Of a stretch of 64,000 nt of DNA, positions 20,787-55,420 are shown piece after piece (positions within the stretch are counted from its first letter, which is position 1; each line of letters starts with the position of its first letter). The notes beneath the pieces were generated by a model. It was not told the origin of the DNA and made no database searches. It worked only from the letters and a program-made list of their open reading frames with translations. Source of the stretch: Patescibacteria group bacterium (lineage in GTDB: Bacteria > Patescibacteriota > Patescibacteriia > Patescibacteriales > GWC2-42-12); NCBI GenBank assembly GCA_028707005.1, contig JAQTVB010000002.1:121-64120 (forward strand). Reading direction: 5' to 3'. The position numbers and the translations under genes were made by a program.

Positions 20787-20969
20787 GTCATTGCGAGCGA
20801 AGCGAAGCAATCTCTGGTAAGAAAGACTAACCAATTAAATTCAAAATCTCTTTAAGTACAATCAAACATCTTAATTAGGCATTTCATTTATTATCGTTTT
20901 TCTTTCTGACCAGAGATTGCCACGCCGCCTTGTCCGCCTGTCAGCGGAACAAGGGCGGCTCGCAATGAC
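20787..20969. repeat. GTCATTGCGAG...CTCGCAATGAC palindromic element (copy a)
   Basis: The terminal arm gtcattgcgagcgaagcgaagcaatctctggt pairs with accagagattgc...ctcgcaatgac. The loop is AT-rich and the right arm holds an extra GCCGCCTTGT/ACAAGGGCGGC hairpin. Confidence 0.8.
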
Positions 20970-20988: not shown

Positions 20989-22299
20989 ATGTTTCTAACC
21001 ATAATCATTTTCATTATAGTTCTCTCTGTCCTAGTGTTCGCCCATGAGCTAGGGCATTTTATGATGGCCAGAAAATTCGGCGTTAAAGCCGAAGAATTCG
21101 GCTTGGGCTTTCCGCCCAGAGCTTTCGGCCTGCAGGTTTGGCGCGAGCGGAAATTAGAAAAAGTTTCCGAGGAAGAAGCGGTGGCGGTAAAACTTGAGGA
21201 CGCATCGCCGATGGGCGGAGCAACGATAATCAAAGAAACGATTATTGACGAGAAAAGAGAGATTGACATCTTGGGCTGGGTGAGAAAATTTAATTTCATC
21301 AAAGGCTCGCGGGAGATCAGCCCGGCGGAGCAAAGATACGGCACGGTTTATTCCATAAATTGGCTGCCTTTGGGCGGATTTGTGAAAATTAAAGGCGAGA
21401 ATGGCGAAGGCGAGAATGAAGCGGATAGCTTTGCCAGCCGTCCGATTTGGCAAAGGGCGTTGATGCTATCGGCCGGCGTGGTGATGAATGTGGCGCTGGC
21501 CATGATTTTAATCATTGTCGGCTTCATGGTCGGCTTGCCGCAGTCTCTGGATGGCTCTTCACTGGACGCGCGCGCGCAGGTGAGCGACCGCAAGATTCAG
21601 ATCGTTCAGGTGGTTAAGGGTTCGCCGGCCGAATCAGCCGCTTTGATTATCGGCGATACGATTATCAGCATAGATAACACGCAGTTTTCCGATTTTTCCG
21701 AATTGCAGAATTATGTGAATAATAAAATCGGGCAGCAGCTGGACTATAAAATAAAACGCGGCCAGGAGTTGATTGATGTAAAAATCGCGCCAATCATGAT
21801 GAGCGAGACCGGCCGGGGCGGCATCGGCGTCGCTTTAAGCGAGACCGGCATAGTAAGCTACCCTTGGTATTTGGCGATTCTTGAGGGCGTCAAGGCCACT
21901 TTCATTTTAGTTTGGGTGATTATCGCGGCGTTTTACGAACTGCTCAAAAGTTTGATTATGGGTCAGGGCGTAAGCGCGGATTTGGCCGGACCGGTGGGCA
22001 TCGCCACTTTGACCGGGGAAGTGGCGCGGATGGGTTTTGTTTACCTCATGCAATTTACGGCTTTATTATCCATTAATTTGGCGGTAATTAATTTTTTGCC
22101 TTTCCCGGCCCTGGACGGCGGGCGGGTGCTGTTTTTAATTATTGAGAAGATTAAAAGAAAGCCGGTTAAAAGGGAGGTGGAAGCGGTGATACATAATGTC
22201 GGCTTTATCCTGTTGATGGTGCTGGTGGTTTTGGTAACTTTCCGCGACGTGGCCAGATTCGGCGGAGTCTTTAAAGGGATTTGGGAGAAGATATTTTAA
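20989..22299 (+). CDS. rseP: RIP site-2 metalloprotease
   Basis: 436 aa. Contains the HELGH zinc motif, a central PDZ-like region and the NLLPFPALDGG motif. Confidence 0.9.
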   Translation: MFLTIIIFIIVLSVLVFAHELGHFMMARKFGVKAEEFGLGFPPRAFGLQVWRERKLEKVSEEEAVAVKLEDASPMGGATIIKETIIDEKREIDILGWVRKFNFIKGSREISPAEQRYGTVYSINWLPLGGFVKIKGENGEGENEADSFASRPIWQRALMLSAGVVMNVALAMILIIVGFMVGLPQSLDGSSLDARAQVSDRKIQIVQVVKGSPAESAALIIGDTIISIDNTQFSDFSELQNYVNNKIGQQLDYKIKRGQELIDVKIAPIMMSETGRGGIGVALSETGIVSYPWYLAILEGVKATFILVWVIIAAFYELLKSLIMGQGVSADLAGPVGIATLTGEVARMGFVYLMQFTALLSINLAVINFLPFPALDGGRVLFLIIEKIKRKPVKREVEAVIHNVGFILLMVLVVLVTFRDVARFGGVFKGIWEKIF

Positions 22300-22308
22300 T
22301 CACATAAT

Positions 22309-22484
22309 GTCATTGCGAGGAGCGTAGCGACGAAGCAATCTCTGGTAAGAAAAAAGACAATAAAAAGAAAATGCCGTAGATTGATGAATTAAATTTTGTT
22401 TAAAGAGATTAATTATTAAAATTAATTAGTATTTCTAACCAGAGATTGCTTCGTCGCCTTGAGTACAAGGCTTCTCGCAATGAC
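22309..22484. repeat. GTCATTGCGAG...CTCGCAATGAC palindromic element (copy b, loop inverted relative to copy a)
   Basis: The arm gtcattgcgaggagcgtagcgacgaagcaatctctggt pairs with accagagattgcttcgtcgcc...ctcgcaatgac. The reverse complement of its loop shares aatctctttaa and ggcatttc with the loop of copy a. Confidence 0.8.
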
Positions 22485-23118: not shown

Positions 23119-23243
23119 ACCAGTAATATTGTATCATGTTTATTAGCATTAGTCGATATTCTTGAACTTGATTTTTTACCCGATTAATTATATGATTAAT
23201 CTGTTTTTATAATTATTCAGCACGCTCTTGCGTGTCTTTTAAT

Positions 23244-26200
23244 ATGAGTCTATTAGATAAAATTTTTGGCGATCCCAATGAAAAGATGGTAAAAATTTTG
23301 CGTCCGGTAGTGGAGCAAATCAATGCTTTGGAAAAAAAGTACCAGGTCATGAGCGACGAAGAGTTAAGGGTGCAGACCGCGGAGTTTAGAAAGAGATTGG
23401 GAGTGGAAAATACAATCCCCCAAACCCCCTTTATCAAGGGGGCAAATTTCGATGAAATTGAGAAAAAGTTAAAAGAAATTTTGCCGGAAGCGTTTGCCGT
23501 GGTGCGGGAAGCGGCTAAAAGAGTTTTAGGGCAAAGGCATTATGACGTCCAGCTAATGGGCGGCATGGTACTGCATCATGGGCAGATCGCGGAAATGAGA
23601 ACCGGCGAAGGAAAAACTTTAGTGGCGACTTTGCCGGCTTATTTGAACGCTTTGCCCGGCCGGGGCGTGCATGTGATTACGGTTAACGATTATCTGGCCA
23701 AGCGCGACGCCGAGTGGATGGGGCGCGTATACAGTTTTCTTGGATTGAGCGTTGGATGTATAACCCACGAGCAGGCGTTTAAATATAATTCTGTCCGGAA
23801 TGACCAAATCCCAATAACCAATAACCAAACAAATCCCAATGACCAAAATTCAAATGACCAAAATAACCTCCTTAATCCCTCCGCCTCGGCAAGCCGAAGG
23901 CGAGACGGGCCTTTGCAAGGAGGACAAGACGGTAAAATCCCCCTTACCCCCTTTGTCAAGGGGGAACTAACAGAAGTGCCGCGCAAAGAAGCCTATAATT
24001 GCGACGTGCTTTATGGCACGAACAATGAGTACGGTTTTGATTATCTAAGGGATAATATGGCGCCGGATCTTAAATCAATGGTGCAACGGAGCCTGAATTA
24101 TGCCATCGTTGATGAAGTTGACTCAATTTTGATTGATGAAGCGCGCACGCCTTTGATTATCAGTTCGCCGGCCGAGGAATCAACCGATAAATATTTTAAA
24201 TTTGCCGAATTGGTACAACGGCTGGTGGAGAATGAAGATTATAATGTTGACGAGAAAATGCGCGCCGCCACTTTAAGCGAAACCGGCATCGCCAAGATGG
24301 AAAAAATGATGGGCGTGGATAATATTTATACGAGCGGCGGCATTGCCGAAGTGCACCATATTGAGCAGGCTTTAAAAGCGCGGGTGCTTTTCAAGCGCGA
24401 TCGCGATTACGTGGTGAAGGACGGCGAAATTATCATCGTTGACGAATTCACCGGCCGGTTGATGTATGGCCGGCGCTATAGCGAGGGCCTGCATCAGGCG
24501 ATTGAAGCCAAGGAGCGAGTGGAGGTTCAGCGCGAATCGCTTACTTTAGCCACCATCACTTTCCAAAATTATTTCAGAATTTATAAAAAACTCGCGGGCA
24601 TGACCGGAACGGCCGTGACCGAAGCCGAAGAATTTTCCAAAATCTACAAATTGGAAACTGTGGTGATTCCCACAAATCGGCCGATGGCGAGAGAAGATTT
24701 GAATGACTTGATTTATCGGACCGAGATGGGAAAATTCAAAGCCGTAGTGGCCGAAGTCAAGCGCCGCCATGCTATCGGCCAGCCGGTTTTGACAGGCACG
24801 ATTTCCATAGAAAAGAATGAAACATTAGCGGAAATGCTTGCTAGAGAGGGAATTGTGCCGCAGGTTCTGAACGCCAAGCATCATGAGCAAGAAGCGCAAA
24901 TTATTTCTCAAGCCGGCAAGTTGGGAGCGGTGACGATCGCCACTAACATGGCCGGCCGCGGCGTAGATATTATGCTCGGGGGAGTGCCGCCAGATAAATT
25001 TCCGCCCAAGGCGGATCAGCCTCGGGCTGAAAAAATTAGCGAGGCTGAAAAGACAAAAGGTGAGGAATACGAAAAGTGGCGCAAGGAGTATGAAAAAGTC
25101 AAATCTTTGGGCGGTTTGCATATTATCGGCACGGAGCGGCATGAAGCCAGGCGCATTGATAATCAGCTTCGCGGCCGCGCCGGCCGCCAGGGCGATCCGG
25201 GGTCGTCCCAGTTTTATGTTTCCATGGAAGACGACTTGATGCGTATTTTCGGCGGCGACAGAATGAAAAATTTAATGGTTACCTTAAGAGTGCCTGAAGA
25301 TATGCCGATTGAAAATGGCCTGGTTTCGCGTTCCATTGAATCGGCGCAGACCAAGGTGGAAGGCAATAACTTTGATATCAGAAAGCACTTGGTGGAATAT
25401 GACGACGTGATCAATAAGCATCGAGAAACGATTTATCGGAAGCGGCGGGAAATTTTGGAACTGGCGGAAACTTCTGTCATCCCGGGCTTGACCCGGGATC
25501 CAGGTGTGCGTGACACGGAGATGGATTCCGGCTCGGAGGCCGGAATGACAAATAAGGGCGCGTCGGTGGAGGGTAAGAAAACTCTGTCTACCATAATCTT
25601 AGAAATGATCTTGAATGAAATTGAACAGGCGGTGATTTTTCATACGGCCGCCGATAGTTCTAAGGACTGGAATGTTAACGAGATTTTTCAGGTCATGTCC
25701 ACGATTTTTGTGGCGGATCAAAAATTAAAAGAAGAGCTCGCGGCTTTTGTTAAAGACGGCGACCCTTCGGCTGGCTCGGGGCAGGTCAAGCTGGATAAAG
25801 TAAAAGTAAGGACAAAAATCATTGAACACCTGGAAAAATTAATAAGAATCAATTATGAAAAAATCACCAAGCTGGCCGGCGAGGCTGGCATAAATTGGCG
25901 GCAGGTGGAAAAGGCGGTTTTGATCAGATCGATTGATATGCTCTGGATAGAGCATCTGGAAGCCATGGACCACATGCGCCACGGCATCGGCTTAAGAGGC
26001 TATGGCCAGCGCGATCCATTGATTGAGTATAAAAAAGAAGCCTATATTCTGTTTAATGAATTGAATAATTTAATTCAAAAACAAGTGGCATATTCAATTT
26101 TCAAGGTGGCTGATTTGGGCAATTTCGCCGTGCCGACCCTGAAGACGCGGCCGCAGAATTATATCGCGCCGGCAAAAACCATGGAAAAAAATAGCGGTTC

Positions 26201-26360
26201 GTTCGCCGCCTTCAAGCAAGCGGATAATGGAAAAAATAAAAATGACACCGTTGATTTGGTTCATGAAAAAGTGAAAGACGCCAGCGGCCAAAAAGTCGGC
26301 CGCAATGATCCCTGCCCCTGCGGCAGCGGAAAAAAGTTTAAGAAATGCCATGGGGCGTAA
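23244..26360 (+). CDS. secA: preprotein translocase ATPase SecA (long form with several in-frame repeat-derived insertions)
   Basis: Contains MRTGEGKTL Walker A, DEVDSILIDEARTPLIIS, TNMAGRGVDI and C-terminal GRNDPCPCGSGKKFKKCHG zinc finger. I preferred the ATG at 23244 (MSLLDKIFGD). Confidence 0.95.
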   Translation: MSLLDKIFGDPNEKMVKILRPVVEQINALEKKYQVMSDEELRVQTAEFRKRLGVENTIPQTPFIKGANFDEIEKKLKEILPEAFAVVREAAKRVLGQRHYDVQLMGGMVLHHGQIAEMRTGEGKTLVATLPAYLNALPGRGVHVITVNDYLAKRDAEWMGRVYSFLGLSVGCITHEQAFKYNSVRNDQIPITNNQTNPNDQNSNDQNNLLNPSASASRRRDGPLQGGQDGKIPLTPFVKGELTEVPRKEAYNCDVLYGTNNEYGFDYLRDNMAPDLKSMVQRSLNYAIVDEVDSILIDEARTPLIISSPAEESTDKYFKFAELVQRLVENEDYNVDEKMRAATLSETGIAKMEKMMGVDNIYTSGGIAEVHHIEQALKARVLFKRDRDYVVKDGEIIIVDEFTGRLMYGRRYSEGLHQAIEAKERVEVQRESLTLATITFQNYFRIYKKLAGMTGTAVTEAEEFSKIYKLETVVIPTNRPMAREDLNDLIYRTEMGKFKAVVAEVKRRHAIGQPVLTGTISIEKNETLAEMLAREGIVPQVLNAKHHEQEAQIISQAGKLGAVTIATNMAGRGVDIMLGGVPPDKFPPKADQPRAEKISEAEKTKGEEYEKWRKEYEKVKSLGGLHIIGTERHEARRIDNQLRGRAGRQGDPGSSQFYVSMEDDLMRIFGGDRMKNLMVTLRVPEDMPIENGLVSRSIESAQTKVEGNNFDIRKHLVEYDDVINKHRETIYRKRREILELAETSVIPGLTRDPGVRDTEMDSGSEAGMTNKGASVEGKKTLSTIILEMILNEIEQAVIFHTAADSSKDWNVNEIFQVMSTIFVADQKLKEELAAFVKDGDPSAGSGQVKLDKVKVRTKIIEHLEKLIRINYEKITKLAGEAGINWRQVEKAVLIRSIDMLWIEHLEAMDHMRHGIGLRGYGQRDPLIEYKKEAYILFNELNNLIQKQVAYSIFKVADLGNFAVPTLKTRPQNYIAPAKTMEKNSGSFAAFKQADNGKNKNDTVDLVHEKVKDASGQKVGRNDPCPCGSGKKFKKCHGA
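23414..23442. repeat. 29-nt repeat with CCCCCTT/AAGGGGG hairpin inside secA (copy 1)
   Basis: aatcccccaaaccccctttatcaaggggg, translated IPQTPFIKG. Confidence 0.7.
23798..23880. repeat. low-complexity aatgaccaaatcccaat-type repeat tract inside secA
   Basis: Encodes NDQIPITNNQTNPNDQNSNDQNN. The 16-mer aatgaccaaatcccaa (23799-23814) is identical to 41535-41550 in an intergenic palindrome. Confidence 0.7.
23936..23964. repeat. 29-nt repeat with CCCCCTT/AAGGGGG hairpin inside secA (copy 2)
   Basis: aatcccccttaccccctttgtcaaggggg, translated IPLTPFVKG. It is a direct repeat of 23414-23442. Confidence 0.7.
25476..25549. repeat. GTCAT...ATGAC palindromic element inserted in-frame in secA
   Basis: gtcatcccgggcttgacccgggatcc...ggattccggctcggaggccggaatgac has the same architecture as the intergenic element at 31013-31089. 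It is translated as VIPGLTRDPGVRDTEMDSGSEAGMT. Confidence 0.7.
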
Positions 26361-26390
26361 TGGTGAATTATGAATAATGAATTATGAATT

Positions 26391-26579
26391 ATGGAAAAAG
26401 AAATTTTTGAAAAAGAAATTGCGATGTGCAAAAAATTATCAAAAAAGAACGGCGGCCAATGCAATTGGGGTGAATGCGAAAAATGCGGCGTTATACCCTT
26501 ATTGCATAAGTTGTTTTACGGTAAAGTTTATGAAAAGATAGATGAAACAAAGGAACTAAAGCGAACCACGTTACAATAA
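26391..26579 (+). CDS. small Cys-containing hypothetical protein
   Basis: 62-aa ORF (…CKKLSKKNGGQCNWGECEKCG…) between secA and a NUDIX gene. No family recognised. Confidence 0.4.
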   Translation: MEKEIFEKEIAMCKKLSKKNGGQCNWGECEKCGVIPLLHKLFYGKVYEKIDETKELKRTTLQ

Positions 26580-27107: not shown

Positions 27108-27155
27108 AAGTTCGCAATGACGGAGAAATCTGGATTCCCGCCTACGCGGGAATGA
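27108..27155. repeat. fragmentary right arms of the GTCAT/ATGAC palindromic element families
   Basis: ttcgcaatgac followed by ggattcccgcctacgcgggaatgac. No matching left arms are nearby. Confidence 0.5.
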
Positions 27156-27253
27156 CAATCACCTGCCTCTTGATTTAATTTTCAATTTAAATTAAAATGT
27201 AATATAAGAGAAGTAATTACTTATACGCCCGGTTTCGGGCGCTATCTTAATTT

Positions 27254-30936: not shown

Positions 30937-31012
30937 TGAAAAAAATTTTGACAAAGCAGGCGATTTTAAGGTAAACTAAAGGAGTGATTTGCCATTGCGA
31001 ACGACTTTTTTT

Positions 31013-31089
31013 GTCATTCCCGCGAAAGCGGGAATCCAGAGTTGTATGCTCTAGCCATGTTTCTGGATCCCCGCTTTCGCGGGGATGAC
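31013..31089. repeat. GTCATTCCCGCGAAAGCGGGAATCC...GGATCCCCGCTTTCGCGGGGATGAC palindromic element in the mreB leader
   Basis: Each arm is itself a hairpin (CCCGCgaaaGCGGG). A TTGACA-18-TAAACT promoter-like pair lies upstream at 30948-30977. Confidence 0.75.
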
Positions 31090-31101
31090 AATACAACTTT
31101 A

Positions 31102-32145
31102 ATGTTTAATAAATTTTTTGGAAAATTTTCTAAAGATTTGGGCATTGACTTGGGTACGGCTAATACTTTGGTTTATACGCCGGACAAGGGGATTGTAATA
31201 AACGAACCGTCGGTGGTGGCGGTTAATTTGCGCACCGACGAGATTTTATGCGTGGGCACGGAAGCGAAAAAAATGCTCGGGAAAACCCCGCCCCATATTC
31301 AGGCGATTAAACCGCTGGTGGACGGCGTGATTTCGGATTTTGAAGTGACGGAAAAAATGCTTAAATATTTCATTGACAAAGTACACTCGGAATATTTTAC
31401 TTTAGTGCCGCGTCCCAGGGTGATAATCGGCATACCGCTGGACATCACCGAAGTGGAGAAAAAAGCGGTTGAAGACGCGGCCAAATCCGCCGGCGCGCGT
31501 GAAGTTTTTTTAATTGAGCAATCCATGGCCGCGGCCATCGGCAGCCGCCTGGATGTGACCGGAGCCCTGGCCACGATGATCGTTGATATCGGCGGCGGCA
31601 CGACCGAAATCGCGGTGATTTCCTTGGGCGGGGTGGTGACCTGGAAAACTTTGCGCCTGGCCGGCAACGCCATTGATAATGACATTATCCAGTACGTGCG
31701 CGAGGAATTTAATATTTTAATTGGCGAACAAGTGGCGGAAAATATAAAGATTAAAATCGGCTCGGCCGCGCCGTTAAAAGAATCAATGGAAATGCCTCTT
31801 CGGGGCCGCGATTTGATTAATGGCTTGCCCAAAGAAGTAATCATCACCGACAGCCAGGTGAGGGAAGCGATGCAGAGAATTATCCGCCAGATTATAGAGA
31901 ATATCAAAATCACTTTGGAAACCACGCCGCCGGAGCTGGTTTCTGATATTTATGGCCATGGCATAGTTTTGACCGGCGGCAGCGCGTTGCTTAGAGGATT
32001 GGACAAGGAGATCGCCCAAGCCACGAAAATTCCGGTAAGAGTGGCCGAAGATCCGCTTACTTGCGTGGTAAGGGGAACCGGCATTTTGCTTAGCGACCCC
32101 GAGCTCTTAGCCAAGGTTCTATCGCCGGCGACGGAAGAATATTAG
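31102..32145 (+). CDS. mreB: rod-shape-determining actin homologue MreB
   Basis: DLGIDLGTANTLVY, DIGGGTTEIAV and GIVLTGGSALLRGL. The ORF-track start at 31042 reads through the repeat, so I preferred the ATG at 31102. Confidence 0.95.
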   Translation: MFNKFFGKFSKDLGIDLGTANTLVYTPDKGIVINEPSVVAVNLRTDEILCVGTEAKKMLGKTPPHIQAIKPLVDGVISDFEVTEKMLKYFIDKVHSEYFTLVPRPRVIIGIPLDITEVEKKAVEDAAKSAGAREVFLIEQSMAAAIGSRLDVTGALATMIVDIGGGTTEIAVISLGGVVTWKTLRLAGNAIDNDIIQYVREEFNILIGEQVAENIKIKIGSAAPLKESMEMPLRGRDLINGLPKEVIITDSQVREAMQRIIRQIIENIKITLETTPPELVSDIYGHGIVLTGGSALLRGLDKEIAQATKIPVRVAEDPLTCVVRGTGILLSDPELLAKVLSPATEEY

Positions 32146-32147
32146 AT

Positions 32148-32262
32148 TAATTTTTAATTTTCAAATACCAATTTTCAATGAATTTTTAATGTTATAATTT
32201 TCAATTGAAAATTAGATAATTGGTCATTCATTAAAAATTGAAAATTGTAAATTGAAAATTAG
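32148..32262. repeat. AT-rich intergenic palindrome (aattttcaat family)
   Basis: The centre taattttcaattgaaaatta is a perfect palindrome, flanked by imperfect inverted arms. Confidence 0.6.
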
Positions 32263-32288: not shown

Positions 32289-33119
32289 ATGGTAAAATTG
32301 AACGTGAAAAAATATACAACCATTATCGCTGTCATTGCGCTGCTTATTTTTTTGCATTATGCCAAAATATTATCTCCCCTGGAATTATACTTAAATCAAG
32401 GGCTAAGGCCAATTTATAAAATATTCTATTCAGTGAGCTCCAACATAAAACAAACATATCAAAGTCAGACTGATAAAACCGATCTGGCTTCAGAATTGAA
32501 TCAGGCTCGCGAAACCATCAACCGCTTGATGGCCGAGAACGTTGAATTGAGGTTTTTGGAAAAAGAAAATCAGGTTCTCCGCGAACAATTGAATTTTTTA
32601 TCAAAAAATAATCGGCGTTATGTAATGGCTAACATTATCTCTCGCGGCGATTTGGAGAATGGTGCGAAAAACAGCCAGGCGGTGGTAATTGACAAGGGAC
32701 TAAAAGACGGTTTATCGCCAGGCCTGGCGGTAGTAAGCGCGTCAAGCCTAGCCACTTCCAGCCGGGGAGTAATTATCGGAAAAATTTCCAATGTTAAGGA
32801 TGATATTTCCGAGATTCGCCTGGTGACTGACGAAAAATGTAAATTAGCCGCCGCTATTTTAGGAGATAATAAGACCATCGGCGTTACCAGTGGGGAGCTG
32901 GGATTAACGATAAAAATGGATTTTATTCCGCAGACGGAAAATATCAAAGCCGGGGATTTGGCGGCCACTTCCGGCCTGGAGCAGAATATACCGCGCGGCT
33001 TGCTTATTGGCCGGGTAGTAAAAGTTGATAAGGAAAATAATCAAGTTTGGCAAAGCGCGATTATCGAGCCGCAAATCGGTTTGGATTCTTTGTCGGTAGT
33101 TTCGGTTTTATTGCCATAA
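32289..33119 (+). CDS. mreC: rod-shape-determining protein MreC
   Basis: 276 aa. N-terminal TM, coiled coil (ENVELRFLEKENQVLREQL) and a C-terminal beta-rich domain. It lies directly after mreB. Confidence 0.8.
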   Translation: MVKLNVKKYTTIIAVIALLIFLHYAKILSPLELYLNQGLRPIYKIFYSVSSNIKQTYQSQTDKTDLASELNQARETINRLMAENVELRFLEKENQVLREQLNFLSKNNRRYVMANIISRGDLENGAKNSQAVVIDKGLKDGLSPGLAVVSASSLATSSRGVIIGKISNVKDDISEIRLVTDEKCKLAAAILGDNKTIGVTSGELGLTIKMDFIPQTENIKAGDLAATSGLEQNIPRGLLIGRVVKVDKENNQVWQSAIIEPQIGLDSLSVVSVLLP

Positions 33120-33120
33120 T

Positions 33121-33296
33121 AAATATAATCCGAATACTACAAATAAATATAATCCGAATATTACGAATTAATATGCGAATACTACAAAAGAATGCAAAAT
33201 GCGAAAAAGATAAATGCCGCAATTGTTAGATATTTGTAGTATTCGGATAATTTTTGTAGTATTTGAATTATATTTATTTGTAGTATTCGGATTCCA
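33121..33296. repeat. long AT-rich intergenic palindrome (aatccgaatactacaaa / tttgtagtattcggatt family)
   Basis: The left arm has three ccgaata(c/t)tac motifs. The right arm has three inverted copies. Confidence 0.7.
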
Positions 33297-33299
33297 TTT

Positions 33300-34244
33300 A
33301 TGCTTATAGAGAAAATAATCAAAAAGAATTACGATTTGACGTCTTTAACAACTTTCCGCATTGGCGGCAGGGCTGAATTTTTTGTGGCCATAAAAAACAA
33401 GCGGGAATTAACACAAGCCATCAACTGGGCGAGAGCGAAAAAATTACCAACATCATTTTTGGGCGGTGGCAGCAATATTTTAATTACTAGCCGTAAAATT
33501 CGCGGTTTGGTTATAAAAATCGGCGGAGAAAATTATTCCATAACGGGAAATATAGTATCAAGCTGGTCCGGTACCGGTTTAACCAGACTGGCAAAGATTA
33601 CCTACAATCATGGTTTATCCGGCTTGGAATGGGCGCTGGGAATTCCGGGAAGTATCGGCGGGGCCGTGCGCGGCAACGCCGGAGCTTACGGCAGCGATAT
33701 CTCCAGAAATGTCGCCCAAGTGGAAGCGTATGACATAGCTAAGAACAGGCTGATAACATTAAAATTACGAGCCTGTGATTTTGCTTACCGGGATTCTGTT
33801 TTTAAGCAAAATAATAATTTAATAATCGTTAATGTTAAATTAGCCTTAACTAAAGGCAATACGGAGGAAATAAAACGCCAGGCCAAAAATAATTTCCACC
33901 AGAGGCTGGCGAATCACCCCAAAGAGCCAAGCGCTGGCTGTGTTTTTAAAAATTTGGAATACGCGAAAATCGCGGAGCAAAATAAGAAATTGGCCGAAAA
34001 ACTGCTGGCCGAAGGCTTGTTTAGAGGCAATAAAATCGGCGCAGCTTATTTTATAGATCAGCTGGGGCTTAAGAGTGAAGTGAGGGGCGGCGCTAGAATT
34101 AGTGAGAAACATGCTAATTTTATAATCAATGCCGGCGGAGCTAAGGCAAGAGATGTAATTAGCCTGATAAGTTTTATTAGAAAAAAAGTTAAAGAAAAAT
34201 ACAAAATTAATTTAGAGGAGGAAGTCCAATATTTTGGAAATTAG
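33300..34244 (+). CDS. murB: UDP-N-acetylenolpyruvoylglucosamine reductase
   Basis: 314 aa. FAD-binding domain (FLGGGSNIL) and C-terminal GGARISEKHANFIIN. Confidence 0.9.
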   Translation: MLIEKIIKKNYDLTSLTTFRIGGRAEFFVAIKNKRELTQAINWARAKKLPTSFLGGGSNILITSRKIRGLVIKIGGENYSITGNIVSSWSGTGLTRLAKITYNHGLSGLEWALGIPGSIGGAVRGNAGAYGSDISRNVAQVEAYDIAKNRLITLKLRACDFAYRDSVFKQNNNLIIVNVKLALTKGNTEEIKRQAKNNFHQRLANHPKEPSAGCVFKNLEYAKIAEQNKKLAEKLLAEGLFRGNKIGAAYFIDQLGLKSEVRGGARISEKHANFIINAGGAKARDVISLISFIRKKVKEKYKINLEEEVQYFGN

Positions 34245-37402: not shown

Positions 37403-37470
37403 GAATTATGAATAATAAATCAAGTATCAGGGAAATTACCATAATTCATTATTTATAATTCATAATTCAT
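37403..37470. repeat. AT-rich palindrome (attatgaat / attcataat family)
   Basis: gaattatgaataataaat...ataattcattatttataattcataattcat. Confidence 0.55.
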
Positions 37471-37474
37471 ATTT

Positions 37475-39103
37475 ATGCCAGACAATATAACCGTCTTCGC
37501 GGAAACGAATTTTCGCAATCAACATAGAAAATTCGGCATTAAAACCGACGATCGCCGCCGGCACATGTATTTAGTGGGAAAAACCGGCATGGGCAAATCC
37601 ACTATTTTGGAGAATATGATTATTGATGATATCAGGGCGGGCAATGGCGTAATGGTGGTGGACCCGCACGGCGATTTGGCGGAAAAAATTATTGAATATA
37701 TACCGAATAATCGGGTAAATGACGTAATTTATTTCAACCCGGCGGATATTGAATATCCGATCGCCTTTAACGTGGTGGAGCAGGTAGAACCGCATCTAAG
37801 GCATTTGGTCGCTTCCGGCCTGATCGGAGTTTTTAAAAAGCTTTGGGCCGATTCTTGGGGGCCGCGCTTGGAATATATTTTGCGCAATGCCATTTTGGCG
37901 ATTTTAGATTATCCCGGTTCAACTTTGCTGGCGGTTATCAGAATGCTGTCGGATAAAAATTTTCGGAAAAAAGTTATTGAAAAAATTCAGGACCCGGTGG
38001 TTAAATCTTTTTGGGTTAATGAGTTCGCCGGCTATGCCAATAATTTCGCTTCCGAAGCGGTTTCGCCGATTCAGAATAAGGTCGGGCAGTTTTTGTCAAG
38101 CGCCTTGATTAGGAATATCGTCGGTCAGGTGAAATCGACCATTGATTTAAGGGAAGTCATGGATAGCGGCAAAATTTTGATTTTAAATTTGAGTAAAGGC
38201 CGAATCGGTGAAGACAATTCTTCTCTGCTTGGCGCCATGATGATCACTAAAGTCCAGCTGGCGGCCATGAGCCGGGTTGATGTTTTAGAGAAAAAACGCC
38301 AGGATTTTTATCTTTACATCGATGAATTCCAGAATTTTACCACCGAAAGTTTCGCCAATATTTTATCCGAAGCCAGGAAATATAGGCTGAATTTAATAAT
38401 GGCCCATCAGTATATTGAACAGCTTGGGGAAATCGTAAAACCGGCGGTTTTCGGCAATGTGGGCACCATAATAGTTTTCCGAGTAGGCGCGGCTGACGCG
38501 GAGGAATTAGTCAAAGAATTTACGCCTGTTTTTTTAGAGGAAGATCTGGTTAACCTGTCTAAGTATGAATTTTACATCAAACTCATGATTGACGGTGTTT
38601 CCTCCGATCCTTTTTCCGCCCGTGGTCTGCCGCCTTTAACCGAAGCGGAAAAAACCAGTAATAAAGACAAGGTTATAAAAGTATCGCGCGAGAGGTACGC
38701 CAAGCAACGGGCGGTAGTTGAAGAGAAAATTTTTCGCTGGCACGAAAATAAAGATGAACCGGCCGGCGATAAAAGGGAACCGGAGAGAAATCAGCATGCG
38801 GAAAGAAATCAGCGCCGCGAGGATCAGCCGCGTCCGGAGCGGCGGGGAAGCGCGCGGCAAAATGCCGCCCCAATCGCGCGTAAAGAAAATACGACTAAAA
38901 CTCCTCTTGGCGGCGGCCAATCAGATGCGAAAAAATATGAAGCGGTTTGCAGCCGTTGCGGCCAGACCACCGAAGTATCTTTTACGCCCGACGGCATCAG
39001 GCCGATTTTCTGCAAAGATTGCTTGATTTTAATTAAAGATGAGAAAAAGAAGGACATAGAAGCCAGATTGGCGGCTAAAAAACAGGAGTTGTCTAAATTG
39101 TAA
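37475..39103 (+). CDS. TraD/TraG/VirD4-like (type IV coupling-protein-like) P-loop ATPase with a basic tail and C-terminal zinc ribbon
   Basis: Walker A GKTGMGKS, Walker B-like FYLYIDEFQNF and C-terminal CSRCG...FCKDC. Confidence 0.65.
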   Translation: MPDNITVFAETNFRNQHRKFGIKTDDRRRHMYLVGKTGMGKSTILENMIIDDIRAGNGVMVVDPHGDLAEKIIEYIPNNRVNDVIYFNPADIEYPIAFNVVEQVEPHLRHLVASGLIGVFKKLWADSWGPRLEYILRNAILAILDYPGSTLLAVIRMLSDKNFRKKVIEKIQDPVVKSFWVNEFAGYANNFASEAVSPIQNKVGQFLSSALIRNIVGQVKSTIDLREVMDSGKILILNLSKGRIGEDNSSLLGAMMITKVQLAAMSRVDVLEKKRQDFYLYIDEFQNFTTESFANILSEARKYRLNLIMAHQYIEQLGEIVKPAVFGNVGTIIVFRVGAADAEELVKEFTPVFLEEDLVNLSKYEFYIKLMIDGVSSDPFSARGLPPLTEAEKTSNKDKVIKVSRERYAKQRAVVEEKIFRWHENKDEPAGDKREPERNQHAERNQRREDQPRPERRGSARQNAAPIARKENTTKTPLGGGQSDAKKYEAVCSRCGQTTEVSFTPDGIRPIFCKDCLILIKDEKKKDIEARLAAKKQELSKL

Positions 39104-39964: not shown

Positions 39965-41500
39965 ATGGATTATTTTAAGGTAAGCAAAGCGGCAGATTTA
40001 CCAGCCCGCAGAGATCGCAGGCTTTACCGCTGGTTAGAAATTTTACCCGGATTTCTGTCCTGGGCGACTTTGCTTATTCTATTATTTTTGTCATGGCTGA
40101 AGCCGATTTGGGTGGCTTATTTTATCATCGCTTTTGACGTTTATTGGTTGCTCTTAGTGATTTATCTGGGCATCAATCTCTTTAGCGCCTATGTAAGCAT
40201 GAAAAAGAATCTGCGCGTGGCTTGGCGGGAAAGATGCGAAAAAGCGCCGGGCCGTTTTGCCTGGTCGGAAGTTGTGCATTTGGTAATTTTTCCCACTTAT
40301 GACGAGAGCCTTGAGGTAGTAAGGCCAAGTTTTGAGGCGCTTTTAAAAGATGGCTATCCGACCGATAAAATGATTATGGTTTTTGCCATTGAAGAAAGAG
40401 CGGGTGAGGCGGGCCGGGAAAAAGCGCGCGCCATTAAGCAGGAGTTTGGCGGAAAATTTAAACATTTTCTCGTGACCACCCACCCCGACGGCTTGGCCGG
40501 AGAAATAAAAGGCAAAGGAGCTAATCAGGCCTGGGCGGCCCAGCAGGCCAAAATTTTAGTGATTGACAAGTTCAATTATGATTATGATAAAATCCTGGTT
40601 AGCGTTTTTGACATGGACACCGTGGTGATGCCGGGATATTTTTATTGCTTGACCTATAAGTTTTTGACTGTTGATAATCCCTATCGAGCAAGCTATCAGC
40701 CGATTCCGGTTTATCATAACAATATTTGGCAAGCGCCTTTTTTCGCCAGAGTGGCGGCCGCTTCCAATACCTTTTGGCAGATGATGCAGCAGATCAGGCA
40801 GGAAAAGCTAGCGACTTACTCTTCGCATTCAATGACTTGGCGGGCGCTGGTTGATATTAACTTTTGGTCAACCAACATGGTAAGTGAAGATTCGCGCATT
40901 TTTTGGCACTGTTTTTTATATTATCGGGGGGATTATCGCGTTGAGCCTTTATACTTTCCCGTCTCTATGGACGTAGTGATGGACCAGACAGCTTGGCAGA
41001 CGATGAAAAATTTATACAAGCAGCAAAGGCGTTGGGGTTGGGGTATAGAAAATTTGCCGTATTTGATGTTTAACACGATTCGCGGCAGAAAGGAGCTGCC
41101 CGTTGGCAAAATGGTCAATAAAATTTTAATTCAACTATACGGTTTTCATTCTTGGGCGACCAACGCTTTGATTATCGGCGTGATCGGCTGGATGCCGATG
41201 ATCCTCGGCGGCCGGCAATTCAATATCACGGTGCTGTCTAATAATCTTCCGCTGGTAGCGCGTACCTTAATGACCGTGGCCATGATCGGTATGGTTTTTT
41301 CGGCCATTATTTCCACCCTGTTATTGCCAAAGCGGCCGCGCCAATACGGCCTTTTAAAAAGCGTTGCCATGATATTGCAGTGGCTGGTTTTGCCGGTAAG
41401 TATTATAATTTTCGGCGCTATTCCCGGCCTGGAAGCGCAAACCCGGCTGATGCTGGGAAAATACATGGGATTTTGGGTAACGCCCAAAGTAAGGAAATAA
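39965..41500 (+). CDS. membrane-embedded processive family-2 glycosyltransferase (cellulose/chitin-synthase-like)
   Basis: 511 aa. TM-flanked GT2 domain with FPTYDES, FDMDT and the QQRRWGWG (QxxRW) motif. Confidence 0.8.
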   Translation: MDYFKVSKAADLPARRDRRLYRWLEILPGFLSWATLLILLFLSWLKPIWVAYFIIAFDVYWLLLVIYLGINLFSAYVSMKKNLRVAWRERCEKAPGRFAWSEVVHLVIFPTYDESLEVVRPSFEALLKDGYPTDKMIMVFAIEERAGEAGREKARAIKQEFGGKFKHFLVTTHPDGLAGEIKGKGANQAWAAQQAKILVIDKFNYDYDKILVSVFDMDTVVMPGYFYCLTYKFLTVDNPYRASYQPIPVYHNNIWQAPFFARVAAASNTFWQMMQQIRQEKLATYSSHSMTWRALVDINFWSTNMVSEDSRIFWHCFLYYRGDYRVEPLYFPVSMDVVMDQTAWQTMKNLYKQQRRWGWGIENLPYLMFNTIRGRKELPVGKMVNKILIQLYGFHSWATNALIIGVIGWMPMILGGRQFNITVLSNNLPLVARTLMTVAMIGMVFSAIISTLLLPKRPRQYGLLKSVAMILQWLVLPVSIIIFGAIPGLEAQTRLMLGKYMGFWVTPKVRK

Positions 41501-41509
41501 ATTTTTTAA

Positions 41510-41675
41510 TTTTTAATTAACCTAATTTCTAATAAATGACCAAATCCCAACCTCCAAATCCTAATTTATTTCTGGGGTTAAAGATTGGGAGTTTATTGGT
41601 CATCGGACATTGGGATTTGGTATTTAGGCATTGGGATTTAGTTAGGTTAATTAGGAATTAGAGCAATTAGAAATT
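41510..41675. repeat. intergenic palindrome carrying aatgaccaaatcccaa / ttgggatttggt motifs
   Basis: The left arm ttaattaacctaatttctaataaatgaccaaatcccaa pairs with the right arm ...cattgggatttagttaggttaattagg. Confidence 0.7.
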
Positions 41676-41705
41676 TTAGATTTTAGTGTTATAATATAAC
41701 CAACT

Positions 41706-42158
41706 ATGATAGATGGCGTCATTATTAAAAAAATAGCTAAGAATACGGATTCCCGAGGCTGGCTAGCCGAGATTTATCGACAGGATGAGCAGGACTATAA
41801 GCCGGCCATGAGTTATGTAAGCCTAACCAAGCCTGGCGTGATCCGCGGACCGCATGAGCATAAACAACAGAGCGACTGCTTTGTTTTTATTGGTCCGGGA
41901 GATTTTGCGCTACACTTATGGGATCGGCGGAAACATAGTGCGACTAACGGTAAACATCTTAGCATTAAGGTTGGAGAAAAAAAACCCACTCTAGTTATCG
42001 TCCCCCCAGGAATCGTGCATGGTTATAAGTGCGTCGGCCAAGCGGGCGGCTGGTGCATTAATTTGCCTAATCAGTTGTATCGGGGCAAAGGCAAGCGAGG
42101 TAAAATCGATGAGATCAGATGGGAGATTGACCCAGCGTCGCCGTATAAAATCGAGTAA
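41706..42158 (+). CDS. dTDP-4-dehydrorhamnose 3,5-epimerase-like cupin (RmlC/WxcM-like)
   Basis: 150 aa. DSRGWLAEIYR and IRGPHEH motifs. Confidence 0.65.
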   Translation: MIDGVIIKKIAKNTDSRGWLAEIYRQDEQDYKPAMSYVSLTKPGVIRGPHEHKQQSDCFVFIGPGDFALHLWDRRKHSATNGKHLSIKVGEKKPTLVIVPPGIVHGYKCVGQAGGWCINLPNQLYRGKGKRGKIDEIRWEIDPASPYKIE

Positions 42159-46049: not shown

Positions 46050-46820
46050 ATGAAATTATCTATCGTCATCCCTGCTTTTAATGAAGAGAAATACATCGGT
46101 GATTGCTTAGAAGCCACTATTAAGGCGATGGCCGGCTTTCCAGAAGAAGTGGAAATTATTGTGATTAATAATGCCAGTACTGACAGAACGCACGACGTTG
46201 CCGCCGGCTACAGCCAGGTTAAAGTTTTTGACGAGCCGAAAAAAGGCACTAACAGCGCTCGCCAGCTGGGGTTAGTTAAGTCCAGCGGCGACTTAATCGC
46301 CAATATTGACGCCGACAATAAAATTAATGTAGAGTGGTTAAAAACTGTCTTTCAGGAGTTTAGCGCCAATCCTCGGCTGGTGGCCCTAAGCGGGCCGTAT
46401 TTATTTTATGATTTGACGCCGCTCTCCCGTTTTTTTGCCAAATTATATTATTGGTTGGCTTATCCGGTTTATGTGATCAGCAATAAATTTTTCAAAAGAG
46501 GCGGAGCGGTGATGGGCGGGAACGTGGTGATCCGCAAGTCGGCTTTGGAGGCGATCGGCGGTTATAACACCGCCTTAACCTTCTATGGCGACGATACGGA
46601 TACGGCAGTCCGCTTGAGTAAAGTCGGCTTGGTAAAATTTAATTATCATTTTACCGTTCAATCCTCTGGACGCAGGCTGGCCAACGAAGGACTGATGAGA
46701 GCCGGTTGGCGCTATGTCACCAATCATTTTTCCACGATTTTTTTCAAAAAGCCTTATGATACGGTCAAACATGATCTTAAAGATAAGTGCGCGGAAGTTT
46801 TGGCGAAGATAAAAGAATAA
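46050..46820 (+). CDS. family-2 glycosyltransferase
   Basis: 256 aa. LSIVIPAFNEE and DAD motifs. Confidence 0.85.
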   Translation: MKLSIVIPAFNEEKYIGDCLEATIKAMAGFPEEVEIIVINNASTDRTHDVAAGYSQVKVFDEPKKGTNSARQLGLVKSSGDLIANIDADNKINVEWLKTVFQEFSANPRLVALSGPYLFYDLTPLSRFFAKLYYWLAYPVYVISNKFFKRGGAVMGGNVVIRKSALEAIGGYNTALTFYGDDTDTAVRLSKVGLVKFNYHFTVQSSGRRLANEGLMRAGWRYVTNHFSTIFFKKPYDTVKHDLKDKCAEVLAKIKE

Positions 46821-46942
46821 TACGAATTACGAATTTAATACGAATTTACGAATAACTTATTAAGTAGAACAAGCTCTTTACTCGATATATCTCGTAATAA
46901 CCGTATTCGTATATTCGTATTAAATTCGTAATTCGTATTACT
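46818..46942. repeat. AT-rich palindrome (aatacgaattacgaat family)
   Basis: aatacgaattacgaatttaatacgaatttacgaata pairs with tattcgtatattcgtattaaattcgtaattcgtatt (about 36-bp arms). Confidence 0.75.
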
Positions 46943-48837: not shown

Positions 48838-48922
48838 ATAATGAAATATGAATCATGAATAATGGCAAGCTGGGCGGTGAATTGAACCATAATTCGTAAT
48901 TCATAATTCGTAATTCATAATT
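48838..48922. repeat. AT-rich palindrome (atgaat / attcat family)
   Basis: aaataatgaaatatgaatcatgaataatgg pairs with ccataattcgtaattcataattcgtaattcataatt. Confidence 0.55.
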
Positions 48923-55339: not shown

Positions 55340-55404
55340 GTCGCCTAACGTATCGGGATATCCGTAGTTTTTGCGACCGACGGAAGCAAAAATTAGGGCG
55401 GAGC
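55340..55404. repeat. attC-like site 2, left half (AAC core plus inner box) with a local degenerate closing stem
   Basis: gtcgCCTAACgtatCGGGATATCCG. The matching inner box CGGATATCCCG lies 310 bp away at 55677-55687. Confidence 0.5.
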
Positions 55405-55420
55405 AAAAAATATTTTAAAT

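Follow-up and report, generated by a model that had tools for sequence, protein, structure and literature searches.

We analyzed a 64,000-nt stretch of DNA from a Patescibacteria group bacterium (contig JAQTVB010000002.1; hereafter the window) and found that its secA gene (23244..26360, forward strand; 1038 amino acids from the ATG at 23244), which carries all the inserts studied here, very probably (probability about 0.8) contains short repeat modules of a non-autonomous kind, which have accumulated in-frame in two permissive surface loops of the protein. These loops, termed sites 1 and 2, belong to the first nucleotide-binding domain. The modules are dispersed in the spacers and genes of many Patescibacteria, and the secA loops are hot spots at which turnover is much faster than in the rest of the protein. 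An earlier note on this DNA had proposed that an essential ATPase tolerates several in-frame, repeat-derived insertions, and this proposal is supported by the exchange of modules between sites of related secA genes (42/44, 30/31 and 41/42 nt identical), by the dispersal of the module families and by the intact motifs of the protein.

The open reading frame (ORF) at 23244–26360 encodes a complete SecA. The Pfam families SecA_DEAD, SecA_PP_bind, P-loop_SecA, SecA_SW and SEC-C were all matched, comparison with SecAs in the PDB gave E = 1e-232, and the protein was 100% identical to the NCBI entry 'MAG: preprotein translocase subunit SecA [Patescibacteria group bacterium]' (MAG, metagenome-assembled genome). 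As previously stated, the frame is open throughout, and the motor motifs MRTGEGKT, DEVDSILIDEARTPLIIS and RGRAGRQGDPG are all kept. Between FLGLSVGC and PRKEAY (site 2), the window SecA has 73 residues, compared with 8 in E. coli SecA; the HMMER alignment of the two proteins ends at query position 172 (chain position 160) and restarts at 246 (chain position 169). An insertion of about 65 codons is thus correct relative to classical SecAs. However, not all of these codons are repeat-derived, as the nearest orthologs already have 16–27 residues at site 2 (for example, ITHEQAFKFDAS-QAESKLVLVSRREAY in P0006), and more distant relatives share a conserved 27-residue extension containing DDSQYDERLKHF. 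Some 20 of the 73 residues belong to a clade-wide β-hairpin extension, and the repeat-derived share is therefore only about 55 codons (amino acids 186–241), formed by three DNA modules at the β-hairpin tip.

All modules in secA are given on the forward strand. Unit A occurs twice: copy 1 (AAATCCCCCAAACCCCCTTTATCAAGGGGG, 23413..23442) lies at site 1 (amino acids 57–66) and is read as IPQTPFIKG, and copy 2 (AAATCCCCCTTACCCCCTTTGTCAAGGGGG, 23935..23964) forms the 3΄ end of site 2 and is read as IPLTPFVKG. The earlier description of a 29-nt unit with a CCCCCTT/AAGGGGG hairpin and a near-identical in-frame copy upstream was confirmed, with 26/29 nt identical and both units lying in the SecA frame (IPQTPFIKGA and IPLTPFVKGE); CCCCCTTTNTCAAGGGGG is found in the window at 23425–23442 and 23947–23964 only, where 0.03 occurrences are expected. 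The other two modules of site 2 are module D (NDQIPITNNQTNPNDQNSNDQNN, 23799..23867; 23 codons; GC content 0.32), an A+T-rich NDQ-type sequence composed of AATGACCAAA and AATCCCAAT motifs, and a 57-nt composite hairpin (23867..23923; GC content 0.65; read as (N)LLNPSASASRRRDGPLQGG), which three linker codons separate from unit A copy 2. The B core, a 30-nt bulged hairpin at the apex of the composite (TCCGCCTCGGCAAGCCGAAGGCGAGACGGG, 23880..23909), is enclosed by the outer stem, CCTCCTT/AAGGAGG, an A-like hairpin; relative to the consensus, a C-G pair of this stem has become T-A, and pairing is kept. The first hairpin mentioned in the earlier note, GCCTCGGCAAGCCGAAGGC, is indeed present at 23883–23901 in a bulged form (GCCTCGGC-AA-GCCGAAGGC), as a single copy in the window. 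The GC contents of modules A and B are 0.57–0.65, compared with 0.41 for the window, and the region from 23866 to 23972 folds as two hairpins (–40.8 kcal/mol, z = –2.9 relative to shuffled sequences). An Rfam search of 23200–24200 gave no family above noise, introns included, and a terminator scan gave no terminator-like site coinciding with the hairpins. Predicted junction peptides of the inserts include NNLLNPSASASR, DGPLQGGQDGK and IPLTPFVK, and IPLTPFVKGELTEVPR would be an example of an insert-spanning peptide.

The 16-mer AATGACCAAATCCCAA at 23799–23814 is, as had been reported, identical to 41535–41550, and an inverted copy with two mismatches lies at 41610–41625 (shuffled sequences gave 0.05 matches). 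Position 41535 falls in the left arm of an imperfect palindrome (41498..41669, no strand assigned) that carries the NDQ-type motif in its arms and occupies the spacer 41501–41705, which is bordered by an ORF end at 41500 and an ORF start at 41706. This palindrome is the only spacer copy of any site-2 module in the window; D-type sequence also occurs in spacers of the orthologous locus L002, at 1746 and 3294. The claim that the repeat families are also intergenic therefore holds within the window for the A+T-rich type, whereas spacer copies of both G+C-rich modules were found in other genomes only.

We modelled the window SecA using AlphaFold2 (AF2) with a 66-sequence alignment. The inserted stretches were placed in low-confidence coil (predicted local distance difference test, pLDDT, <50) at amino acids 57–66, 185–239, 586–595 and 745–776, flanked by confident strands or helices. 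At site 1 (57–66), the coil lies between two helices; at site 2, it lies between confident strands at 178–181 and 242–245, and the base of the site-2 extension is accordingly modelled as a clade-specific β-hairpin.

We then compared the 60 closest SecAs, which are 59–76% identical to the window protein overall and 72–88% identical over 888 core columns. They share about six variable sites (amino acids ~57–70, 183–241, 583–600, 745–785, 841–848 and ~995–1000), which hold differing repeat peptides by lineage, or nothing. The peptides found there were of the types PLxPxxKGG, PSASAS/PSAGSGQ, VIARSE...IASLPPVARND, NDQ/NFQFPISN, VIPGLTRDPG...AGMT and VILEPKAIESH; at site 1, the orthologs carry other repeat peptides or none. 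The window segments are missing or different in orthologs that are 84–88% identical over the core, which argues that they are not conserved SecA sequence. Three orthologous loci (L001, L002 and L003) share the gene order RRF, RseP, S30AE, SecA, SecDF, MreB with the window, and among about 14 syntenic genes compared with these loci, sizeable indels were found in SecA and RseP only. SecA showed 7–10 gap openings and 54–109 gapped positions, compared with 0–4 gapped positions in SecD (732 amino acids), SecF, MreB, MreC, MurB and other syntenic genes. Moreover, secA holds 6 of the 22 perfect G+C-rich hairpins of the window in 4.9% of the sequence (binomial P ~5e-4).

Modules of the window recur at other sites of related secA genes. 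The composite hairpin of site 2 (23872–23915) matches site 1 of the L001 gene in 42/44 nt (95.5%), the unit A copy of site 1 matches site 2 of the L001 gene in 30/31 nt, and module D of site 2 (23798–23839) matches site 4 of the L002 gene, in the scaffold/wing region, in 41/42 nt. The host SecA proteins are only about 76% identical, so that the modules are far more alike than the genes that carry them. Because the modules are more similar than their host genes and lie at different sites, movement or exchange at the DNA level is required. Modules also occur in place: the L001 gene has unit A at the same position of site 2 as copy 2 of the window, and the L002 gene has a homologous 23-codon D stretch at site 2, as in the window.

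To follow the modules beyond secA, we scanned one genome per prokaryotic species (596 Gb) for unit A as an exact pattern with 25 specified bases. At least 117 stretches in these species-representative genomes were matched, compared with about 0.001 expected by chance. According to the record titles, the matches listed come from Gracilibacteria, Peregrinibacteria/Peribacteria, Falkowbacteria, Komeilibacteria, Parcubacteria and unclassified Patescibacteria, together with one MAG labelled Myxococcota (MO_167.B37). Among the matches listed, 95 distinct copies were aligned and proved to be conserved over about 29–31 nt, (A)AATCCCCCYNACCCCCTTTNTCAAGGGGG, with unrelated flanks, and at least 36 copies lie inside ORFs of at least 200 amino acids. 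The host proteins identified by Pfam include IleRS, UvrA, RecJ, RarA/MgsA, MnmA, MurG and PanC, as well as a thiamine pyrophosphate enzyme, a HypF-like protein and a glycosyltransferase, and many of them visibly hold further repeat peptides. The B core, searched as a pattern with 26 specified bases, was found in 48 metagenome contigs as exact 27-mers, with only about 30 nt conserved, in spacers and in genes for NadE, a 5΄-3΄ exonuclease, glycosyltransferases and penicillin amidase. Counted together, units A and B lie in the reading frame of no fewer than 15 further housekeeping genes that could be identified. The composite AACCCCCTTAATCC-core-GGGCCCTTTNNAAGGGGGAC recurs in about nine metagenome contigs and at site 1 of the L001 secA. 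A collection of 2.9 million viral contigs contained no exact match for either unit.

In MO_167.B37, unit A stands at both ends (147-nt spacing) of a repeat of about 190 nt, which occurs at positions 1–200 of loci L041 and L063 and at about 45 other loci and sits at many contig ends. These observations suggest a high-copy element resembling miniature inverted-repeat transposable elements and containing the 28-nt unit of Patescibacteria; an Rfam search with this repeat gave nothing above noise. The records of L001 and L049 (CAZLKB010000002.1) and of L028 are labelled 'uncultured Gammaproteobacteria'. The label of L001 looks wrong, because its SecA is of the Patescibacteria type (76% identical to that of the window) and its gene order is the same. 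Some MAG labels are thus unreliable, and the spread of unit A across phyla rests mainly on the one MAG labelled Myxococcota.

The use of reading frames bears on the fate of the units. Unit A is open in five of the six frames and reads CCC CCT TGA in the sixth; the B core, from direct reading of its sequence, is open in all six. Thirty of the 128 unit A matches listed (about a quarter) are bordered on either side by 60 or more open codons. None of these 30 intragenic copies uses the stop frame, although some 5 of them should do so if translation played no role ((5/6)^30 ~0.004), and all five open frames are in use among them, giving different peptides. This forms the chief evidence that the units are probably translated rather than removed.

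We also asked how the modules are combined. The flanks of the B core pair with each other more strongly than permuted flanks (mean –10.1 compared with –6.3 kcal/mol; 0/2000 permutations as low), and the outer stems come from unrelated families (CCCCCTT/AAGGGGG, ATTCCGGA/TCCGGAAT and A+T-rich types). The usual place of the B core is thus inside the loop of a second palindrome, and composites grow by nesting. The flanks of unit A showed no excess pairing (P = 0.13).

Very recent turnover was found between closely related alleles. The secA genes of L173 (448–3417) and L174 (1501–4413) agree at 99.4% of positions over 2913 nt. A 57-nt in-frame indel inside unit A at site 4 separates them, and of the 18 substitutions between the two alleles, 9 are clustered in the roughly 110 nt next to this indel. 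Two tandem units share the direct repeat CCCCCTT(T)AT, which bounds the indel exactly, and the indel may therefore represent a unit-unit deletion, or else a duplicative gain, rather than an insertion. In the alleles of L170, L171 and L172, which are 90–95% identical, inserts of 54 and 108 nt accompany locally divergent flanks, which indicates that these alleles are mosaics produced by recombination between alleles.

We propose the following model for the permissive-loop interpretation. The modules would be translated as disordered loops rich in Pro, Gly, Asn and Gln that project from the tip of the clade-specific β-hairpin and from a linker between two N-terminal helices. As these loops would lie away from the ATPase motifs, SecA would still work. 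Selection would remove copies that fall in structured regions or in the stop frame, leaving a few crowded hot spots. The modules might spread by a process that acts on hairpins at the DNA level, the candidates being a trans-acting enzyme that transposes single strands and, alternatively, template switching or recombination where hairpins form, and homologous recombination between alleles and between tandem units would then add or delete copies. A broader and more tentative idea, which we consider possible though clearly less probable than its negation, is that a common pool of 'codon-neutral', nearly stop-free hairpin modules of about 30 nt (about ten codons) exists in Patescibacteria and perhaps in further phyla. 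Such modules would move by targeting hairpin loops or single-stranded DNA, nest into composites, drive the formation of mosaic alleles and constitute a main source of lineage-specific loop insertions in essential proteins of these bacteria, and their crowding in a few SecA loops would reflect hot spots of targeted integration or recombination and not tolerance alone.

Several points weigh against the interpretation as repeat modules in permissive loops. No mobilising enzyme was identified, and none was sought. No target-site duplication or exact insertion boundary for A and B was definable in L170–L172, which are too divergent, and the L173/L174 pair fits recombination between tandem units equally well, with no clear insertion signature. 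Neither A nor B was found outside secA in the 64-kb window, nor in 20 kb around the L001 secA. This genome may therefore contain few copies of them, and the crowding in secA is not explained by tolerance alone. Module D is of low complexity and might have grown partly by slippage instead of insertion. Furthermore, the evidence for the inserts comes from assembled contigs, translation is deduced from frame statistics and intact ORFs rather than from peptides, and the AF2 model is of moderate overall quality (mean pLDDT 67).

The inserts might instead be adaptive flexible linkers or interaction motifs of the SecA of the candidate phyla radiation, with their likeness at the DNA level arising as a by-product of recruitment. 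This is consistent with the extra length that nearly all orthologs keep at sites 1, 2 and 4, with the conserved 27-residue site-2 extension of distant relatives and with stems that stay paired through a double change (CCTCCTT/AAGGAGG). However, we regard this explanation as unlikely, since the content of the sites differs even between orthologs that are 84–88% identical over the core, and P0006, P0010, P0044 and P0045 have minimal sites. Elsewhere, the units are read in five frames and give unrelated peptides, and many copies lie in spacers. Moreover, the NDQ peptides of the window and L002 are only about 61% identical, compared with about 86% for the core, and the segments are predicted to be disordered. 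A process at the RNA level, in which mature SecA lacks the segments or its expression is tuned, was also considered; the segments would then be intron-like, or subject to translational bypass as in mitochondrial byp elements and T4 gene 60, or regulatory or pausing hairpins. The hairpins are stable (–40.8 kcal/mol, z = –2.9), and in the review PMC8811140, related GC clusters of Magnusiomyces mitochondria are described as bypassed by the ribosome. All intragenic copies examined here are nevertheless in-frame and stop-free (0/30 in the stop frame), the indels of 54, 57 and 108 nt are multiples of three, and neither an Rfam family, introns included, nor a terminator-like site was matched at the hairpins, so that we consider such a process very improbable, though the hairpins may still have a pausing or regulatory role.

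The least probable explanation, which we hardly credit, is an assembly artefact in which repeats led the assembler to stitch foreign copies, or sequence of another strain, into secA. The window is a metagenome-assembled contig, unit A stands at many contig ends of MO_167.B37, where it breaks the assembly, and the related alleles are mosaics. However, the units of 30–60 nt are shorter than reads and than the final k-mers of assemblers, SecA is collinear and in-frame on either side of the inserts, and independent assemblies (L001, L002 and L170–L174) show similar in-frame units at the same loops. Known classes of genetic elements were likewise rejected. Inteins carry splice-junction residues and comprise at least about 130 amino acids, and introns have a catalytic RNA fold. 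Inteins, introns and diversity-generating retroelements were ruled out by the size of the inserts, by absent motifs and by a pattern of variation that does not match; for the class of byp elements, introns and inteins, the inserts are in-frame with 0/30 in the stop frame, have no Rfam match and measure 10–23 codons each. Taken together, these results support the interpretation as in-frame repeat modules in permissive loops of SecA.

Two further in-frame inserts were found in the window SecA. At site 4, a 76-nt palindromic element (25475..25550, forward strand; VIPGLTRDPG...SGSEAGMT) ends in TGTCAT/ATGACA and folds with its flanks at –52.7 kcal/mol; for amino acids 745–776, AF2 gave pLDDT <50. 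This element shares its architecture, TGTCATyCC-hairpin-GGrATCCAG ... CTGGATTCC-hairpin-GGAATGACAA, with a palindrome in the spacer upstream of mreB (31009–31095) and with a half copy after a NUDIX gene (27126–27158), and the inner stems differ yet pair. At site 5, an 8-codon insert, PSAGSGQV (25764..25787, forward strand), is lacking in 58 of 59 orthologs, and only P0043 has an insert here; other orthologs carry peptides of the PSAGSG type at their site 6. With site 1, site 2 (three modules), the site-4 element and PSAGSGQV, the earlier count of at least four separate insertions is borne out.

Other repeats were observed in the window. Spacer palindromes of the GCGACGAAGCAATCTCTGG family (20802–20925 and 22327–22457) flank RseP, and the same family is in-frame at SecA site 4 of many orthologs (TVIARSE..EAIS..IASLPPVARND), for example, as a 108-nt insert in L172. 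RseP itself, an M50 protease (20989–22299), has 436 amino acids, compared with 386–387 in four orthologs; its window-specific insert of about 45 residues (near amino acids 52–100, ~21140–21290) showed no hairpin or repeat similarity and was rejected as part of the phenomenon. The longest mreB ORF (31042–32145) starts 20 codons upstream of the start of its orthologs and overlaps a hairpin at 31067–31086. Translation of mreB probably begins further downstream, in which case the palindrome at 31009–31095 would lie entirely between genes. A+T-rich spacer palindromes at 26354–26417, 32148–32261, 33119–33301, 37436–37479, 46818–46940 and 48897–48922 use iterated AATTATGAAT, AATACGAATT and TTTCAAT, in the style of module D and of 41498–41669. 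Six copies of a 27-nt direct-repeat family, ATAACGTATCCGAATATACGGAGTTTT, are spread at irregular intervals over the final 9 kb of the window (55345–63427).

Proteins and rRNAs of the candidate phyla radiation are known for unexplained lineage-specific insertions. In the present case, at least some of this extra protein sequence is traceable to identifiable DNA repeat modules common to several classes, and gain or loss of modules is seen between alleles that are 99.4% identical. The positions of the inserts provide a natural map of the loops in which an essential motor would accept extra sequence, and repeat-derived segments should be masked in alignments, phylogenies and structure predictions for these organisms. 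The features that we had not expected are units of 30 nt common across classes, their nesting, their crowding at hot spots of an essential motor and their very recent turnover.

Our literature search, in an incomplete library, found reviews of Rickettsia palindromic elements (RPEs), repetitive extragenic palindromes (REPs) and GC clusters, and no account of in-frame repeats in Patescibacteria. Among these systems, REPs are extragenic by definition; most are arranged as inverted doublets (REPINs), and a RAYT transposase is associated with them. The modules resemble the REPs and bacterial interspersed mosaic elements of proteobacteria in that these, too, are imperfect G+C-rich hairpins of about 30–40 nt with many copies and can serve as targets for other insertions, and units A and B are indeed short (20–40 nt) imperfect palindromes in many copies. 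They differ from REPs in that many copies are intragenic, and the flanks of unit A showed no partner, as an inverted doublet would (P = 0.13).

RPEs (Ogata et al. 2000, 2002) are described in PMC10969869 and PMC3184786 as repeats of 105–146 bp that lie in-frame in many housekeeping genes, are compatible with the protein fold and comprise ten families restricted to Rickettsia. The likeness is as follows: palindromic repeats lie in spacers as well as in-frame in unrelated housekeeping genes, compatibly with the fold, they are translated as extra peptide segments (probably so in the present case), and the hosts are host-dependent bacteria with small genomes. In the window secA, unit A, the B core, module D and the site-4 element are in-frame palindromic repeats that do not break the ORF. 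However, RPEs have lengths of about 105–146 bp and a family-specific peptide, whereas the present units measure about 30 nt (57–108 nt in composites), are three to five times shorter and can be read in as many as five frames. The present modules come from several unrelated families, nest in each other's loops and crowd into few hot spots, and one unit is common to many classes of Patescibacteria, whereas RPEs are described from Rickettsia only. By this comparison, the modules would not be members of the RPEs, which are the closest bacterial precedent, and they may constitute a second, more modular bacterial case of the 'selfish DNA in genes' of Rickettsia.

In behaviour, the closest parallel is the GC clusters of yeast mitochondria (Wu and Hao 2015). 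PMC8811140 describes these clusters as lying mostly in spacers and causing in-frame size polymorphism of var1; they insert into the loops of other clusters, merge, shuffle and promote recombination, with terminal AG or TAG target duplications having been proposed. Both systems consist of short G+C-rich palindromes in an A+T-rich genome, located mostly in spacers, with nesting, in-frame polymorphism and recombination, and the present modules match this mode of action in GC content (0.57–0.65 compared with 0.41), in the nesting of the B core and in the 57-nt polymorphism, though not by descent. They differ from the mitochondrial clusters in having a bacterial host and in including an A+T-rich family as well, and a search for terminal duplications found none. 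The byp elements of Magnusiomyces mitochondria break the frame or carry stops, and the ribosome skips them; byp elements and T4 gene 60 resemble our case as short hairpin-forming inserts that do not destroy the gene, whereas our units invariably keep the frame and have no stop in the frame that is read. The modules in the secA loops are thus, by analogy, a bacterial counterpart of both the RPEs and the GC clusters of yeast mitochondria.

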